A program made the translations under genes and the position numbers. A DNA stretch of 4,691 nucleotides from a virus (taxonomy: Duplodnaviria > Heunggongvirae > Uroviricota > Caudoviricetes): IMG/VR virus record IMGVR_UViG_2693429748_000020; one strand, written 5' to 3'. Below, in pieces: positions 1 to 4,691 of this stretch. Every line of letters begins with the position of its first letter. Position 1 is the first letter of the stretch. A model generated the notes under the pieces. It did not search any database. It was not told where the DNA came from and was given only the letters and a program-made list of their open reading frames with translations.

Positions 1-73
1 CAAAGTGATCTACTATTCCGCGCAGCTATTTAGGAGTAGAGCGATAACGTGTTTTAATTCTGTCTCGTTCATT

Positions 74-133
74 TTACTCACCTGACACGCCACATACCAG
101 AGATTCGTTGTTGCCAAGATCGATAGTATTCAT
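74..133 (-). pseudogene. ydfA-like small prophage gene, copy A, with a 96-bp in-frame internal deletion (19 codons left versus 51 in copy B)
   Basis: Minus-strand ATG at 133..131 and the following 13 codons match copy B (MNTIDLGNNESLV). Window 62-85 and 101-175 align to 2525-2548 and 2660-2733; copy B 2549-2644 is absent, and the ~15 bp right of the junction (86-100 vs 2645-2659) is diverged. The frame is preserved and ends at the same TAA (76..74). Confidence 0.4.
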
Positions 134-313
134 GTTGACCCCATTTCCCCTTAACGCCGGGTGGCGGAACGTTTTATCTACTGCGCTTTGTATCAATCAA
201 CAACTGCCGTCATGTTCGTATGCCTCAGGCTGGCTACTTAGCCCTGTTCAGTGACTGGATAACTCGAGGTATTGTCCTGCCGTTCTCTGGTGGGGCGTTG
301 TTTGGATATGCTT

Positions 314-342
314 ATTAAACACAATTTGTTTTCTTGTGTCAA
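314..342 (-). promoter_or_regulatory. PL-like sigma70 promoter of cassette A reading toward ydfA (-35 TTGACA, 17-bp spacer, -10 TTTAAT)
   Basis: On the minus strand: TTGACA (revcomp of 337-342), 17-nt spacer, TTTAAT (revcomp of 314-319). It lies downstream of the repressor A terminator and upstream of the ydfA remnant, the position lambda PL occupies relative to cI. Confidence 0.45.
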
Positions 343-355
343 CACGCAATGTGTT
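318..355. promoter_or_regulatory. Two operator-like dyads of the CAC-N5-GTG family (OL-A) overlapping the PL-like promoter
   Basis: AACACgcaatGTGTT at 341-355 is a perfect 5-5-5 dyad. AACACaatttGTtTT at 318-332 has one mismatch. Centres are 23 bp apart, the same spacing as the sites between repressor A and cro A. Confidence 0.4.
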
Positions 356-384
356 TTATGGTGAGTGTCATATGATGATGCTAC

Positions 385-408
385 AAAAAAGCCCGCTGAT
401 AGCGGGCT
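385..408 (-). terminator. Rho-independent terminator downstream of repressor A
   Basis: Minus-strand transcript reads AGCCCGC-TATCA-GCGGGCT followed by TTTTTTG (7-bp GC-rich stem, 5-nt loop, T tract), 30 nt after the repressor stop at 439. Confidence 0.7.
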
Positions 409-438
409 GATTGGCATATTACTGTGATAGCAAGATCA

Positions 439-858
439 TTATTCCGGTGGGGGATTATCTTTAATCCTGCCTCTCAAATATTTTTCTACATACTCATCGA
501 TTTCTTTTAGCCGGACTTCAAATAGCTCAATCATTCGTTGTTGTTCTGAGCCCGGTAGCTGGTTAAACAACTCAAGAAGTTTTCGTTGGGATTCATTTAA
601 CCACAATTCAGAAGATTCCTGTTCTCCAAAGAGGAGCTCAGGAGGAGATATGCCAAGTGCCTTTCCCAATACGACAGCGTCATGTACTCCAACATTTCTG
701 CTGCCCGCCTCATAGTTACCTATACGCGATTGCGTCCATCCGCAGATTTCAGCAAGTTTTCCTTGAGATAAACCAAGCTTCTGCCTGCGCTCTTTAAGAC
801 GCATTGCAATTTTGTCATTGAGCCTACTAGCGGCAATTTTTTCGTTTTCTTTTTCCAT
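439..858 (-). CDS. Phage repressor A: XRE-family HTH, DicA-like architecture without an S24 peptidase domain (139 aa)
   Basis: ORF with RBS AAGGA 5 nt before the ATG. HTH segment QKLGLSQGKLAEICGWTQSRIGNYEAG. C-terminal motif LLELFNQLPGSEQ parallels LLQLFDALPESEQ in the DicA-like repressor at 2895-3302. Divergent from a Cro-like gene and followed by a terminator. Confidence 0.85.
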   Translation of the reverse strand: MEKENEKIAASRLNDKIAMRLKERRQKLGLSQGKLAEICGWTQSRIGNYEAGSRNVGVHDAVVLGKALGISPPELLFGEQESSELWLNESQRKLLELFNQLPGSEQQRMIELFEVRLKEIDEYVEKYLRGRIKDNPPPE

Positions 859-869
859 TGCATCCTTGT

Positions 870-930
870 ATCACGAATCGTGATTTACATAAAACACAAA
901 ACAGCTTGGCTATATAACACAAGGTGTGTT
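870..930. promoter_or_regulatory. OR-A: three evenly spaced operator-like sites (CAC-N5-GTG family) between repressor A and cro A
   Basis: ATCACGAaTCGTGAT at 870-884 is a perfect 7-1-7 dyad resembling lambdoid operators. AACACAaggTGTGTT at 916-930 is a 6-3-6 dyad. A degenerate half-site AACAC sits at 893-897. Centres fall at about 877, 900 and 923 (23-bp spacing). Confidence 0.45.
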
Positions 931-954
931 TAAAATTGTCATCGGAGGTTTTCA

Positions 955-1197
955 ATGAACAAAATTTCAACATATCGAAAACAGCTTGGGCTGTCTCAAA
1001 GACAACTTGCTGTTCAGTTAGGGTGGATACAAAGCCGACTGGCAAATTACGAAGCAAATTTTCGTACCCCTGGACTAGAGGAGTGCAGAAAAATTGTTTC
1101 TACCCTTAATCGGCTTGGCGCTCATTGTGGACTTGACGATGTATTCCCCCCAGACGGTAAGCATAGCGAAAACAGCATAGGAGCGGTTGATTCATGA
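955..1197 (+). CDS. Cro-like XRE-HTH regulator of cassette A (80 aa)
   Basis: RBS GGAGG 6 nt upstream. HTH KQLGLSQRQLAVQLGWIQSRLANYEA closely parallels the repressor A HTH (LGLSQ..LA...GW.QSR..NYEA). Divergent from the repressor; stop overlaps the next gene start (ATGA at 1194-1197). Confidence 0.8.
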   Translation: MNKISTYRKQLGLSQRQLAVQLGWIQSRLANYEANFRTPGLEECRKIVSTLNRLGAHCGLDDVFPPDGKHSENSIGAVDS

Positions 1198-1463
1198 AAA
1201 TCAGGCATGAGCACATCGAATCAGTGTTGTTAGCCCTGGCAGCCGAAAAAGGGCAGGCGTGGGTCGCTAACGCAATTACTGAAGAATATCTGCGCCAGGG
1301 GGGCGGCGAATTGCCCCTTGTACCAGGCAAGGACTGGAACAATCAGCAGAATATCTATCACCGTTGGTTGAAAGGTGAAACGAAAGCGCAAAGGGAAAAA
1401 ATTCAGAAACTGATCCCTGCGGTTCTGGCAATTCTTCCGCGCGAGCTGCGTCACCGACTCTGA
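1194..1463 (+). pseudogene. ydaT: YdaT-like (CII-analog) gene, copy A, 3'-truncated at the IS junction
   Basis: The first 88 codons are ~98% identical in nucleotides to the intact 140-codon copy at 3590-4012. Identity ends at 1462; from 1463 the sequence is the IS orfB interior, and the TGA at 1461-1463 is created by the junction. Confidence 0.7.
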
Positions 1464-2122
1464 TTTTTCAGCGTTCCCCAGAAGCTTTCCATCGGAGCGT
1501 TGTCGTAACAGTTACCTTTACGCGACATTGATGTTTTCAGACCAGACTGCTCCTGTATGACCCGGTAATCGTATGCGCAGTACTGTGAACCTCGATCAGA
1601 GTGGTGGATTAGCCCGGCAGGTGGGCGCTGGCTCCTGAGCGCCATAAACAGGGCTTTACCTGTCAGCTCTTTTGTCATGCGCTCTCCCATGGCGTAGCCG
1701 ACAATTTCGCACGTATAAACATCTTTGATGCCAGCGAGGTACAACCATCCCTCCTGTGTGGCAACATACGTCAGGTCCGCCACCCAGACCTGATTTGGTG
1801 CTGTAGGAGCGAACGTCTGGTTCAGCAGATTTGGCGCAACTGGCAGATTGTGGTTCGAGTTCGTAGTCGCTCTGAACTTGCGTTTCTGCTTACAGCGTAG
1901 CCTTAGCTCCTTACGAAGACGTGCCAGTCGGTCACGACCAACGATGATGCCATTCTCTGCCAGCTCCGTCTGGAGCCGCCGGGTTCCATATGTTTCGCGA
2001 GTGCGGATATGTGCCACCTTAATCTCCAGTTTTAGCCGCTCATCACTTTGTTTTCTGTCTGAGGGTTCATGCTGTACCCAGTTGTAATAACCGCTCCTGG
2101 ATACACCAAATACCTGACACAT
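1451..2122 (-). CDS. IS3-family transposase OrfB (DDE integrase-like catalytic domain), C-terminally truncated
   Basis: DDE-region motifs are present: WVADLTYV, HHSDRGSQY and CYDNAPMESFWGTLKN. The last codons (QSR-stop, 1451-1462) are read from flanking prophage DNA. The frame stays open upstream to the slippery site at ~2209, consistent with an OrfAB fusion. Confidence 0.8.
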   Translation of the reverse strand: MCQVFGVSRSGYYNWVQHEPSDRKQSDERLKLEIKVAHIRTRETYGTRRLQTELAENGIIVGRDRLARLRKELRLRCKQKRKFRATTNSNHNLPVAPNLLNQTFAPTAPNQVWVADLTYVATQEGWLYLAGIKDVYTCEIVGYAMGERMTKELTGKALFMALRSQRPPAGLIHHSDRGSQYCAYDYRVIQEQSGLKTSMSRKGNCYDNAPMESFWGTLKNQSR

Positions 2123-2157
2123 CGCTTCAATGGGAAATTGTTGTCGCCATTGTTCGA

Positions 2158-2460
2158 TTAACGCGTATTTTTCAGCGACTCCTGTGCAAAATACGCTGTT
2201 GCTTTTTTTAATATATCTCGCTCAAGGCGAGCTTCATTTAACGCCTTACGCAGTTGCAGAATTTCAGATTCCAGTTCAGCCACCGTGCGGGAACCAGGAG
2301 TACCGAGCCCTTTTCTGGCGGCGGTAACCCATTGTCCTAAAGTGCCTTCAGGAAGAGATAATCGGGAAGCGCCTTCACTGATCGAAAGTTGATTTTCAAG
2401 AACCGTTCTGACAGCTTCGGCTTTGAACTCTTTAGAGTAACGTTGGGTTTTTCTGCTCAT
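2158..2460 (-). CDS. IS3-family OrfA (HTH plus leucine-zipper transposase subunit, 100 aa)
   Basis: Protein MSRKTQRYSKEFKAEAVRTVLENQLSISEGASRLSLPEGTLGQWV...LESEILQLRKALNEARLERDILKKATAYFA shows the typical IS3-family OrfA HTH and heptad leucine repeat. Confidence 0.9.
   Translation of the reverse strand: MSRKTQRYSKEFKAEAVRTVLENQLSISEGASRLSLPEGTLGQWVTAARKGLGTPGSRTVAELESEILQLRKALNEARLERDILKKATAYFAQESLKNTR
2203..2209 (-). other. Putative programmed -1 ribosomal frameshift site (A AAA AAA G) linking orfA to orfB
   Basis: A run of seven A on the minus strand lies in the orfA codons TTA-AAA-AAA-GCA. A -1 shift here reads into the orfB frame (..KKSNSVFCTGVAEKYALIEQWRQQFPIEAMCQVFGVS..). This is the standard IS3-family arrangement. 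Confidence 0.5.
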
Positions 2461-2536
2461 TATTAGCTCCTTCTGATGCCATTCTATTTCAGGAAGGAGT
2501 GTCCGTTAAACTCAGGCTACCTCAGTCTCGTTCATT

Positions 2537-2692
2537 TTACTCACCTGAATGTCTTCCCAACCAACGACGTGCGCCAGCTTCGGTTTTAAACGTTTTGCTT
2601 TTGGTATACGTCATGGCGGTGAATGTGCCGTCCTGGTTGGGGAACACGCCGTACACCAGAGATTCGTTGTTGCCAAGATCGATAGTATTCAT
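2537..2692 (-). CDS. ydfA: ydfA-like small prophage protein, copy B (51 aa from the internal ATG; the ORF track extends to a GTG at 2746)
   Basis: The ATG at 2692..2690 is preceded by a G-rich RBS-like stretch (AGGGGAAATGGGG). Product MNTIDLGNNESLVYGVFPNQDGTFTAMTYTKSKTFKTEAGARRWLGRHSGE. It lies directly downstream of the DicA-like repressor in the same orientation, as ydfA does relative to dicA in E. coli K-12 Qin (recalled). Confidence 0.55.
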   Translation of the reverse strand: MNTIDLGNNESLVYGVFPNQDGTFTAMTYTKSKTFKTEAGARRWLGRHSGE

Positions 2693-2768
2693 GTTGACCC
2701 CATTTCCCCTTAACGCCGGGGTAGCGGAACTGTTTGCTGAGAACACCGTGCGGTGTCTTGATGAATGA

Positions 2769-2798
2769 AATTTAGAATAACCTAAGGTGGGCGGTCAA
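2769..2798 (-). promoter_or_regulatory. Candidate PL-like promoter of cassette B reading toward ydfA (-35 TTGACC, 18-bp spacer, -10 TAAATT)
   Basis: Minus strand: TTGACC (revcomp of 2793-2798) and TAAATT (revcomp of 2769-2774). The -10 is weak. An operator-like TTAG-N6-CTAA site overlaps it. Confidence 0.3.
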
Positions 2799-2821
2799 GG
2801 TTTTTGTGTAGAAAAACCTAA
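2772..2821. promoter_or_regulatory. OL-B: operator-like TTAG-N6-CTAA sites downstream of the DicA-like repressor
   Basis: TTAGaataacCTAA at 2772-2785 is a perfect 4-6-4 core. gTAGaaaaacCTAA at 2808-2821 has one mismatch. Same core and spacer as the three sites between dicA-like and dicC-like. Confidence 0.35.
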
Positions 2822-2894
2822 GTTTTTTGATGTAAAAAACACAAGTGTTTGAAAGTTTGTGCTTTTTATTACAGGGTGTGGAGAAAAAAGGGGA

Positions 2895-3302
2895 TTATTT
2901 GTTTGCGCTTCTTTTGCGAGCTTTGAGTAGTTCTTCAAAAAGTTTGTTGAAATTTTCAACTCGAGCACGCATCTCTGACAACAGGGCCTTTTGCTCTGAC
3001 TCAGGCAGTGCGTCGAACAGTTGAAGTAACTCTTTTTGATCTTCTGTCAGAATGGCTGGCTGATTATCCGGGATCGGTTCGCCTGGTTGTTTATCTTCAT
3101 CCCCAAAAAGAAGCCAAGTCGGTGAGCACTGAAGCGCTTGGCTCAGTGCGAATAATCTTTTCCCCGCCGGCTGTGTTTCATCTCTTTCCCATTGAGAAAT
3201 TGTTACGTGAGCCACTTTGACCAGCTTACCTAATGCGGCCTGAGACAGTTTTAATTTTTTACGCCTATGTAAGAGGCGAGCACCGAAGGTTTCGTTTTTC
3301 AT
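2895..3302 (-). CDS. dicA: DicA-like prophage repressor (XRE-HTH, 135 aa, no S24 peptidase domain)
   Basis: Strong recalled similarity to E. coli Qin DicA across the C-terminal two-thirds (LFALS..LQCSPTWLLFGDEDKQP...LLQLFDALPESEQ...EMRARVENFNKLFEELLKARKR). The N-terminal HTH is diverged. Divergent from a DicC-like gene. Confidence 0.9.
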   Translation of the reverse strand: MKNETFGARLLHRRKKLKLSQAALGKLVKVAHVTISQWERDETQPAGKRLFALSQALQCSPTWLLFGDEDKQPGEPIPDNQPAILTEDQKELLQLFDALPESEQKALLSEMRARVENFNKLFEELLKARKRSANK

Positions 3303-3368
3303 ATTAGGGAATTCTAATTTTTCTTGACTTAGGTTTCTCTACGATCTAGTTTCCTTAGGAAAATCTAA
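3303..3368. promoter_or_regulatory. OR-B: three evenly spaced operator-like sites (TTAG-N6-CTAA) between dicA-like and dicC-like
   Basis: ATTAGggaattCTAAT at 3303-3318; TTAGgtttctCTAc at 3329-3342 (one mismatch); TCCTTAGgaaaatCTAAGGA at 3352-3371 (perfect 7-6-7, core 3355-3368). Centre-to-centre spacing is 25-26 bp, as for lambdoid OR1-OR3. Confidence 0.5.
3324..3352 (+). promoter_or_regulatory. Candidate dicC-like (Cro) promoter (-35 TTGACT, 17-bp spacer, weak -10 TAGTTT)
   Basis: TTGACT at 3324-3329 and TAGTTT at 3347-3352, overlapped by the middle and right operator-like sites. RBS AAGGAG sits 7 nt before the ATG at 3379. Confidence 0.35.
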
Positions 3369-3378
3369 GGAGCTCGAT

Positions 3379-3606
3379 ATGTTGAAAATTGATGCTATAG
3401 CGTTTTTTGGCAGCAAAACAAAGCTTGCCAATGCCGCAGGAGTTAGGCTGGCAAGCATTGCTGCATGGGGGGAACTGGTTCCTGAAGGTCGCGCGATGCG
3501 CCTGCAAGAGGCATCTGGCGGGGAACTTCAGTACGACCCCAAAGTTTATGACGAATATCGTAAGGCAAAACGACCTTGGAAGGTGATTCATGAAAATCAG
3601 GCATGA
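3379..3606 (+). CDS. dicC: DicC-like Cro-type regulator (75 aa)
   Basis: Strong RBS. Divergent from the DicA-like repressor. Product has an HTH-like segment (SKTKLANAAGVRLASIAAW). Resemblance to E. coli DicC is from recall. The 3' end overlaps the ydaT-like start by 17 nt. Confidence 0.75.
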   Translation: MLKIDAIAFFGSKTKLANAAGVRLASIAAWGELVPEGRAMRLQEASGGELQYDPKVYDEYRKAKRPWKVIHENQA

Positions 3607-4012
3607 GCACATCGAATCAGTGTTGTTAGCCCTGGCAGCCGAAAAAGGGCAGGCGTGGGTCGCTAACGCAATTACTGAAGAATATCTGCGGCAGGGGGGC
3701 GGCGAATTGTCTCTGGTACCAGGCAAGGACTGGAACAATCAGCAGAATATCTATCACCGTTGGTTGAAAGGTGAAACGAAAGCGCAAAGGGAAAAAATTC
3801 AGAAACTGATCCCTGCGGTTCTGGCAATTCTTCCGCGCGAGCTGCGTCACCGACTCTGCATCTTCGATACCCTGGAACGCCGTGCATTACTGGCGGCGCA
3901 GGAAGCGTTGAGTACGGCAATTGATGCGCATGATGATGCTGTCCAGGCCGTTTACCGGAAAGCACATTTCAGCGGTGGTGGGTCGCCCGGCGATTCTGTC
4001 GTAGTGCATTGA
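3590..4012 (+). CDS. ydaT: YdaT-like protein (CII functional analog of Rac/CP-933P-type prophages), intact copy, 140 aa
   Basis: 140-codon ORF with RBS GGAAGGTGA, immediately downstream of the cro-like gene. Length and position match YdaT (recalled). Its first 88 codons are duplicated at 1194-1462. Confidence 0.75.
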   Translation: MKIRHEHIESVLLALAAEKGQAWVANAITEEYLRQGGGELSLVPGKDWNNQQNIYHRWLKGETKAQREKIQKLIPAVLAILPRELRHRLCIFDTLERRALLAAQEALSTAIDAHDDAVQAVYRKAHFSGGGSPGDSVVVH

Positions 4013-4056
4013 TTGAAATTAATCGTGCCGGATTGTTTTGTTCGGTATCAGTTAAA

Positions 4057-4077
4057 TGTAACGCTGCGAGCGTTACA
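4057..4077. repeat. Palindrome 1 of 3: tGTAACGCT-gcg-AGCGTTACa (perfect 9-3-9), 13 bp upstream of the replication gene start
   Basis: Perfect dyad read directly from the sequence. It abuts the RBS AGGTGA (4078-4083) of the gene starting at 4090. Confidence 0.6.
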
Positions 4078-4089
4078 AGGTGAAAACAA

Positions 4090-4431
4090 ATGGCTTCAAA
4101 CTGGATAAAGCTCGAGGTTATTACGCCGGATAAGCCGGAAATATTCAGGCTTGCTGAGATTCTGAATATTGATCCAGATGCCGCATTAGGGAAGGTTATT
4201 CGCTTCTGGGCATGGGCGGATCAACAAATGATAGACGGTAATGCAGATTGTAACGCTCGCGGCGTTACAAAAAGTGCAATAGATCGCATCACTTTTATGT
4301 CTGGTTTTGCTGATGCGTTAATTCAGGTTGGATGGCTGGTCGAAAATGACGGTGGGCTTTCTCTACCTAACTTTGAACGTCATAACGGAAAAAGCTCTAA
4401 AAAAAACGGGCGGTTACAAACGAGCGAGTAA
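4090..4431 (+). CDS. Replication initiator, N-terminal domain (phage replisome-organizer-like); frame ends prematurely at 4431
   Basis: RBS AGGTGA 7 nt upstream. The N-terminus MASNWIKLEVITPDKPEIFRLAEIL...FWAWADQQMIDG resembles the N-terminal domain of phage replisome organizer / O-like proteins (recalled). The gene position after the CII analog fits a lambdoid layout. Confidence 0.65.
   Translation: MASNWIKLEVITPDKPEIFRLAEILNIDPDAALGKVIRFWAWADQQMIDGNADCNARGVTKSAIDRITFMSGFADALIQVGWLVENDGGLSLPNFERHNGKSSKKNGRLQTSE
4249..4269. repeat. Palindrome 2 of 3: tGTAACGCT-cgc-gGCGTTACa (one inner mismatch), inside the replication gene
   Basis: Same 8-bp arms as 4057-4077 and 4459-4477. Lies in the coding sequence (codons D-C-N-A-R-G-V-T-K). 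Confidence 0.55.
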
Positions 4432-4458
4432 CAAAAATACGCGAACTGAAACGAAAAG

Positions 4459-4477
4459 GTAACGCTGCCAGCGTTAC
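4459..4477. repeat. Palindrome 3 of 3: GTAACGCT-gcc-AGCGTTAC (perfect 8-3-8), with an extra half-site AGCGTTAC at 4493-4500
   Basis: Read directly. The lone half-site repeats the right arm 23 bp downstream. The site lies just 3' of the 4431 stop, in the only frame that stays open. Confidence 0.55.
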
Positions 4478-4502
4478 ACAAACGGATCAAAAAGCGTTAC
4501 CA

Positions 4503-4538
4503 GAGGAAGAGGAAGAGGAAGAGGAAGAGGAAGAGGAA
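4503..4538 (+). repeat. (GAGGAA)6 perfect tandem hexanucleotide repeat encoding a 12-residue poly-Glu tract
   Basis: Six perfect GAGGAA units read directly from the sequence. They are in frame with the open linker frame of the replication gene. Confidence 0.9.
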
Positions 4539-4691
4539 GATCTAAATACTGATCTCCCCCTCGCCAAAAACGAGCGTCTAAAAAATTCGAGCCGGAGGCT
4601 ATTGAGCTGCCCGATTGGTTGCCGGAAACACTCTGGCATGAGTGGGTCCGGTTCAGACAGGCATTGCGAAAACCGATTCGAACGGAGCAGG

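Follow-up and report, generated by a model that had tools for sequence, protein, structure and literature searches.

The window analysed here is the whole 4,691-nt stretch of the IMG/VR virus record IMGVR_UViG_2693429748_000020. It carries two immunity cassettes in tandem, A on the left and B on the right, and between them a truncated copy of the insertion sequence (IS) IS600. A first-pass annotation had described two divergent repressor/Cro pairs in this stretch, and both are present: repA(-)/croA(+) in cassette A and repB(-)/croB(+) in cassette B.

Cassette A begins with ydfA_A (74..133, minus strand), a remnant of a DUF1391 gene with 19 codons left after a 96-bp in-frame internal deletion, as seen by alignment to copy B and to Shigella sonnei 53G. 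Its repressor gene, repA (439..858, minus strand), encodes a short XRE/DicA-like protein of 139 amino acids (aa) without an S24 peptidase domain (Pfam HTH_3; PHROG 8). RepA aligns over its full length with the NCBIfam DicA model yet scores 57.3 bits, below the 101-bit cut-off: it has the fold and architecture of DicA but is outside the DicA family by the curated threshold. The exact protein is found on 776 contigs, and its nearest phage relatives are repressors of Citrobacter, Actinobacillus and Aeromonas phages, which are 60-65% identical. Across an intergenic gap of 96 bp, croA (955..1197, plus strand) encodes an 80-aa Cro analogue with a Pfam HTH_3 domain and no match to DicC. The gap (872..928) holds two candidate operators of the right-hand (OR-like) kind, CACGAATCGTG at 872-882 and CACAAGGTGTG at 918-928, and a palindrome scan places a candidate left-hand (OL-like) operator, ACACGCAATGTGT, between repA and ydfA_A (342..354). 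CAC-N5-GTG occurs at three sites (343 on the OL side, 872 and 918 on the OR side) against 0.84 expected, and the longer form ACAC-N5-GTGT twice, against 0.03 expected from shuffled sequence. Cassette A had been said to retain its terminator, promoters and operators. The terminator is there, as a terminator-like hairpin with a T-run downstream of repA (390..408, minus strand; terminator scan), and so are the operator-like palindromes, but the promoters could not be confirmed: a consensus scan gave 5 sites against 5.2 expected, i.e. chance level. Downstream of croA, ydaT'_A (1194..1463, plus strand; PF06254) keeps the first 89 codons of ydaT. Compared with the cassette-A locus of S. sonnei 53G (HE616528; locus L014 in our numbering), the rest of ydaT and ydaU/ydaV are gone, in agreement with the proposed loss of the downstream replication module.

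Cassette B has an intact 51-aa DUF1391 gene, ydfA_B (2537..2692, minus strand; PF07151, E=3.5e-28). Between it and repB lies a match to a promoter of the leftward (PL) or dicBp type, TTGACC-18-TAAATT, together with two TAG-N6-CTA candidate operators at 2773-2784 and 2809-2820 (2769..2820, minus strand). The 135-aa repressor encoded by repB (2895..3302, minus strand) passes the NCBIfam DicA model (NF007257) with 237.3 bits against the 101-bit cut-off. It is 62% identical to DicA of Escherichia coli K-12 and 97.8% identical to the annotated dicA product of PPompW prophages, and the exact protein is found in 10,028 blocks of the gene-position index. The divergent croB (3379..3606, plus strand), 76 bp away, encodes a 75-aa Cro analogue of the DicC/P22_Cro type (PF14549) that passes the NCBIfam DicC model (NF007282; 153.8 bits, cut-off 130). 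Three further TAG-N6-CTA candidates, OR-like in position (3305..3367), lie at 3305-3316, 3330-3341 and 3356-3367, which gives five sites (2773 and 2809 on the OL side; 3305, 3330 and 3356 on the OR side) against 0.5 expected. The longer TTAG-N6-CTAA was observed three times against 0.10 expected, and two of these sites keep their position in the dicA-dicC intergenic region of K-12. The operator-like sets claimed for the two cassettes are thus both present, above shuffled expectation. Cassette B ends with ydaT_B (3590..4012, plus strand), an intact gene for a 140-aa CII analogue (PF06254; PHROG 163 'CII-like').

Both cassettes have the architecture of a lambdoid, Rac/Qin-type immunity module. 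All four repressor and Cro genes carry helix-turn-helix (HTH) domains, and the two genes of each pair diverge across a short gap. Palindromes that would serve as operators lie on the intergenic side and on the leftward, PL-like side of each repressor gene, and the gene for the CII analogue YdaT stands right after cro in both, intact in B and cut at codon 89 in A.

The slot shared by the two cassettes

As first reported, cassettes A and B share no meaningful nucleotide similarity: megablast found nothing, and the best blastn match between them was 17 nt long (E=0.009). Their DNA-binding domains had also been called unrelated. This is true of the Cro proteins, for which no alignment was obtained (HTH_3 against P22_Cro/DicC), but not of the repressors, which are homologous, with 30% identity (E=5e-17) in a full-length alignment; each is an HTH_3 protein that matches the DicA model.

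Each cassette also occurs by itself, as a check suggested in the first-pass annotation asked. In 153 of 5,426 complete E. coli genomes, cassette A stands as a single immunity region inside Rac-type prophages with intR/xisR/recE, between the DUF1391 gene and ydaT. Cassette B plays this part at all 20 B-type loci that were examined, and a Rem gene lies further downstream in B-type prophages. Most of the top whole-window matches in complete E. coli genomes consist of one immunity region and the shared arms. The idea of one slot for A and B therefore survives in the sense that the two are alternative occupants of the space between DUF1391/ydfA and ydaT in Rac/Qin-type prophages, but the window is no case of a single mosaic phage holding both in that slot.

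At least six cassette types meet the shared ydaT arm at the identical nucleotide: A, B, PaaR2-PaaA2-ParE2 with YdaS, an S24 repressor with a P22-type Cro, a CI-type repressor with YdaS, and a 153-aa HTH protein with YdaS. The switch is marked by the palindrome TGATT-CATGAA-AATCA over the ydaT start codon (1188..1203, second copy at 3584..3599), a shared module boundary that differs at one or two positions from TTGATT-N6-AATCAA, the YdaT operator that was mapped in CP-933P by footprinting (PMC9986795). A third near-match to this operator overlaps the stop codon of ydaT_B (4009-4026). The Pfam names YdaS_toxin and YdaT_toxin raised a toxin-antitoxin reading of YdaS and YdaT, which we rejected: the literature describes them as Cro and CII analogues, not toxins (PMC5917428, PMC8630535, PMC9986795), and no toxin-antitoxin feature was seen in the window.

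The IS600 fragment and the repeat arms

The segment 1463-2524 (minus strand), left unidentified in the first-pass annotation, proved to be the key to the arrangement. It is a truncated IS600, with IS position 1 at window 2524 and position 1062 at window 1463. Over these 1,062 bp its identity to complete IS600 copies of Shigella loci, which are 1,264 bp long, is 99.8-100%, and it matches the annotated 'IS3-like element IS600' (IS3 family; NCBIfam transpos_IS3). The left inverted repeat and orfA are intact; orfB is cut, keeping codons 1-221, and about 200 bp are absent together with the right inverted repeat. The segment is a fragment and not a complete element, and because the right inverted repeat is missing it is dead, unable to transpose by itself.

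The two ends of the fragment differ in nature. At its inner end, codon 89 of ydaT_A is fused to an internal IS600 position, and the junction creates the TGA stop codon of ydaT'_A (1461-1463). A CTCT microhomology at 1458-1461 carries the IS600 match on to position 1067, with a mismatch at 1462. This end is a microhomology deletion joint, not a transposition joint. The left end of IS600 lies 12 bp downstream of the ydfA_B stop codon, and the same IS600/ydfA_B junction is common to loci L025, L026, L031-L032 and L034-L040, in which stubs of 274, 290 or 712 bp remain (274 or 290 bp in S. sonnei; the 712-bp piece in L025, L026, L033 and L037). Because other Shigella genomes share this junction, the insertion beside ydfA_B is inherited and real. 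In L025, L026, L033 and L037, the IS600 beside ydfA_B is broken at IS position 712 (equivalent to window 1813) by another IS3-family element with the terminal sequence TGAAGTGGTCAACAAAAAC..., which we take to be IS911-like. L025, L026 and L037 have an extra full IS600 in ydaU, at the equivalent of window 4197, a case of nested IS insertions in a prophage remnant.

The arms around the cassettes had been described as about 98-100% identical. They are repeats indeed: the right arm, 1187-1462, matches 3583-3858 at 271 of 276 positions (98.2%), and the left arm matches in two pieces, 62-85 with 2525-2548 (24/24) and 86-161 with 2645-2720 (73/76). The left arm is however not a simple repeat, since the 96 bp between its two pieces, which copy B and all other cassette-A loci retain, are missing in frame from ydfA_A (joint at 85/86, with 1-3 bp of microhomology). 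Nor do all the limits of the arms fall at gene boundaries as in lambdoid mosaics. The inner limits do, and only these are true mosaic boundaries, but the outer limits, 62/2525 and 1462/3858, are the work of IS600, being its insertion point and its truncation junction.

A stretch of 143 nt is identical in both ydaT arms and ends at a C/T single-nucleotide polymorphism (SNP), where the ydaT'_A/IS600 joint falls. Short-read contigs of many E. coli and Shigella assemblies (L003-L010) end at or just past ydaT codon 89. The recurrent 89-aa 'partial protein' stems from this stretch, which is shared by co-resident Rac-type prophages and ends at the SNP. As for ydaT_B, it has A-type synonymous alleles in two short patches, 3623/3628 and 3838/3859, and is otherwise B-type. 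The 3623/3628 patch eliminates a 1-bp frameshift seen in all Shigella B loci examined. These A-type patches are either the product of conversion of one paralogous arm by the other or an artefact of the consensus sequence. The YdaT_B protein is the common B type and, with the mosaic SNPs being synonymous, is not distinctive.

Each half of the window has its counterpart at a different S. sonnei locus. Apart from the 96-bp deletion, window 1-85 and 85-1462 agree in every base (100% identity) with the cassette-A locus of S. sonnei 53G and of other S. sonnei chromosomes. L014 carries an IS600 with the same orientation 2.7 kb past ydaT_A; window 1458-2524 is co-linear with it (L014 2696-1630), and deleting L014 5396..2697 gives window 1-2524 exactly. 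Window 2235-4691 is the cassette-B locus of S. sonnei, from which it departs by 4-5 substitutions and, in simple repeats, by a few changes of length. The 53G chromosome has locus A at ~1.95 Mb and, ~1.2 Mb away and in opposite orientation, locus B at ~0.77 Mb; in CP032523 they lie at 4.15 and 2.96 Mb. The two loci are apart in every complete genome carrying both, and their positions differ widely among S. sonnei genomes.

The flanks fit the same two loci. The first 32 positions (1..32) are the terminal 30 nt of an IS630-family element and its TA target duplication (31-32), identified by identity to L014 and L011. Window 1-85 is 100% identical to these two S. sonnei loci, where a 343-aa DDE_3 transposase gene comes next. 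Loci free of IS630 diverge at window ~32, and both ends of the element read AATAGCTGCGC...GCGCAGCTATT, TA-flanked, at a CTAG target. On the right, a ydaU-like replication-initiator gene of prophage B (4090..4691, plus strand; PHROG 2509 'replication initiation protein', E=1e-58) is frameshifted and runs off the window, which ends 34 nt past the last base that separates B-type from A-type ydaU (4657-4691). The frameshift lies in an A8 run at 4391-4398, which is also A8 in L031, L034 and L040 and is A9 in L032, L035 and L038. A GAAGAG hexamer array at ~4503-4540 of the same gene varies in copy number among S. sonnei genomes; both the run and the array are slippage-prone tracts. Palindromes of the form TGTAACGC-N5-GCGTTACA, 20-22 bp long, occur at 4054-4078, 4246-4269 and 4455-4478, spaced by about 200 bp, one just upstream of the ydaU-like gene and two within it. 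They resemble iterons, or else an origin that lies inside the initiator gene as it does in lambda O.

Origin of the tandem

We favour the reading that the window represents two defective Rac/Qin-family prophage remnants of an S. sonnei-type chromosome, joined via the truncated IS600 by rearrangement in vivo, and we hold it with as much doubt as confidence. The first step, the insertion of IS600 downstream of ydfA_B, is shown by the junction shared with other Shigella genomes. That IS600, or its 290-bp stub, would then have recombined with the inverted IS600 2.7 kb beyond ydaT_A; with the geometry of 53G, the resulting inversion would put A directly upstream of B. Its product would read IS630-ydfA_A-repA-croA-ydaT_A-ydaU-ydaV-DUF977'-IS600-ydfA_B-repB-croB-ydaT_B-ydaU_B, with order and orientation as in the window. 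A 2.7-kb deletion at the CTCT microhomology, suggested by the co-linearity with L014, would have taken ydaT_A codons 90-140, ydaU, ydaV, DUF977 and the right ~200 bp of IS600, and a separate 96-bp deletion would have shortened ydfA_A. High rates of IS-associated rearrangement are on record for Shigella genomes (PMC8072062).

A number of observations weigh against this history. No place in the 5,426 complete E. coli genomes covers at least 80% of the window, and the tandem is absent from the phage and plasmid collections and from ~40 Shigella and E. coli loci. The 40-nt junction does not occur in species-representative genome, metagenome or viral contigs, and neither the truncated OrfB (223 aa) nor the shortened DUF1391 frame (40 aa) is present among 153 billion gene positions; the 89-aa YdaT' is on record only as partial genes at contig ends. 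At least four unique events are needed within 4.7 kb (inversion, 2.7-kb deletion, 96-bp deletion and two conversion patches). The halves are linked via a repeat with dozens of copies, over a length of at least 290 and at most 1,062 bp, so that the sequence alone is no proof of contiguity. Finally, the ydaT'/IS600 junction falls exactly at the first SNP that discriminates A from B, where short-read contigs break, and both window ends lie at repeat boundaries (30 nt inside IS630 on the left, A/B-identical ydaU on the right), as those of a whole contig would. A 38-mer across the ydfA_A deletion joint was also absent from genome and metagenome contigs.

Several of these observations also speak for a rival reading, in which the tandem is not one natural molecule and the A and B contigs were brought together via multicopy IS600 by an assembly mis-join or by template switching in vitro, the ydaT arms being mixed by path switching or polishing. 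We take such an artefact seriously, while leaning against it. Besides the singular junction, the repeat-bounded ends and the coincidence of 1462/1463 with the SNP at which contigs of other assemblies end, the A/B/A/B allele mosaic of ydaT_B, whose switches are separated by shared stretches of 62-122 nt, is a pattern typically left by paralogue collapse, polishing or recombination in the polymerase chain reaction. The IS600 SNPs are uninformative as to which copy is present: the window IS600 is the common consensus, and one copy cannot be told from a hybrid. Against an artefact stands the anatomy of the joints. A de Bruijn join needs k-1 identical bases, and the joints here have 4 bp (ydaT'/IS600) and 1-3 bp (96-bp deletion); because such microhomologies are too short for a k-mer-graph assembler, real molecules with these joints must have existed. 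Two copies of a 143-nt exact repeat together with 1 kb of IS600 are not what a simple unitig assembler would deliver, and no fork at position 1067 was found among the IS600 copies in 65 high-scoring segment pairs. The coincidence with the SNP is itself weak, as a breakpoint next to one of ~20 A/B SNPs has a ~5-10% chance. Moreover, the geometry of the S. sonnei loci yields the order and orientation of the window by one ordinary IS x IS inversion.

Two other histories would keep the tandem within one prophage, and both fare much worse than the IS600-mediated joining of two remnants. The first-pass annotation had pointed to a single mosaic lambdoid prophage; on this model it would have gained an orphan cassette by recombination between ydfA and ydaT arms, giving a selected dual-immunity island. 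The inner arm limits are genuine module junctions, used by the cassette types listed above, and both repressor genes and operator sets are intact, all of which would suit it. A crossover between arms, however, predicts intact arm-cassette-arm-cassette-arm, whereas we found a ydaT cut at codon 89 and fused to the interior of IS600, a ydfA beside an IS600 end, and no continuous prophage backbone with intact homologous arms joining both cassettes. The halves match two separate S. sonnei loci almost base for base, IS scars included, and the tandem is in no phage or prophage of any collection. We consider this model very unlikely, and arm-mediated unequal crossover is rejected on junction anatomy and arm alleles. 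Still less credible is a history in which one immunity region was first duplicated locally, in tandem, and one copy then had its repressor/Cro pair replaced. It would account for arms that are 96-100% identical, but the A arm has the alleles of the S. sonnei A locus and the B arm is mostly B-type, so that the copies are not each other's closest relatives; the IS630 left flank and IS600 belong to separate S. sonnei loci, and the internal IS600 breakpoint is left unexplained.

Known systems and what the tandem would mean

Nearly everything in the window has a known counterpart. Cassette B resembles the Qin dicA-dicC locus of E. coli K-12 (dicBp-ydfABC-dicF-dicB) in its gene order, a leftward ydfA followed by divergent dicA-like and dicC-like genes, in its identity to DicA, its passing of both family cut-offs and its TTAG-N6-CTAA sites at matching positions, and in its short repressor without an S24 domain, presumably relieved by Rem. 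It differs in that it continues into Rac-type ydaT/ydaU, while Qin continues into ydfX/ydfW, and in that the IS600 12 bp past ydfA_B leaves the dicF/dicB part of the operon not adjacent. The Rac and CP-933P immunity regions (RacR-YdaS-YdaT; PaaR2-PaaA2-ParE2/YdaS/YdaT) are alike in having a divergent repressor/Cro pair and then YdaT, the YdaT-operator-like palindrome at the cro/ydaT boundary and an intR/xisR/recE prophage context; they differ in repressor/Cro specificity (HTH_3/HTH_3 in A, DicA/DicC in B), and one ydaT here is cut. On a larger scale, the window recalls the decay of Shigella prophages, whose remnants are broken by IS600, IS630, IS1 and another IS3-family element (PMC8072062), but the A-IS600-B adjacency is in no genome examined. 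The tandem of PPompW and an Stx2 phage (LC5678xx) likewise brings two lambdoid immunity specificities onto one stretch of chromosome; those are, however, two complete prophages of tens of kb each, whereas the window has only fragments of 1-2 kb and no integrase/att structure.

In the Qin prophage, the PL-like promoter dicBp, which lies upstream of ydfA, is under repression by DicA, and the antirepressor Rem relieves this repression (bioRxiv 10.1101/2023.04.14.536235). By analogy, RepA and RepB, lacking the S24 domain, would not be cleaved in the SOS/RecA response and would instead be relieved by an antirepressor. Each repressor would bind its own OR-like and OL-like palindromes, silencing cro/ydaT rightward and ydfA leftward, and with the two genes intact a cell would probably have immunity against Rac-like phages of the A and the B type alike. 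Since YdaT(1-96) fails to bind DNA (PMC9986795), no activity is expected of YdaT'_A with its 89 aa. It had been suggested that cassette A may give a second superinfection-immunity specificity. Such a specificity is no consequence of the tandem: ordinary S. sonnei already has both intact repressor genes at separate loci, and because of this the tandem adds no identifiable new property.

Both modules, the shared ydfA/ydaT arms, IS600 and the IS-scrambled prophage remnants of Shigella are all already documented. The adjacency itself is either an artefact or a rearrangement, bridged by IS600, that happened once. It carries little biological weight. It does call for caution, as an IS-bridged junction of two loci can mimic near-identical arms around different cassettes, and an assembly path through a multicopy IS is untrustworthy without spanning reads. 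It is possible, though we think it doubtful, that the arrangement is real in full, i.e. that in one S. sonnei-type lineage an IS600 x IS600 inversion turned two decaying Rac/Qin prophages into a compact 3.5-kb island with two intact repressors, in which short-patch conversion from the A-type ydaT arm then repaired the frameshift by which ydaT_B is inactivated in all other Shigella B loci examined. If true, this would be a small, concrete case of paralogous prophage remnants rescuing each other's genes. A mildly useful by-product is the convergence of six cassette types on a palindrome resembling the YdaT operator, which pins a recombination or module boundary in Rac-type prophages.

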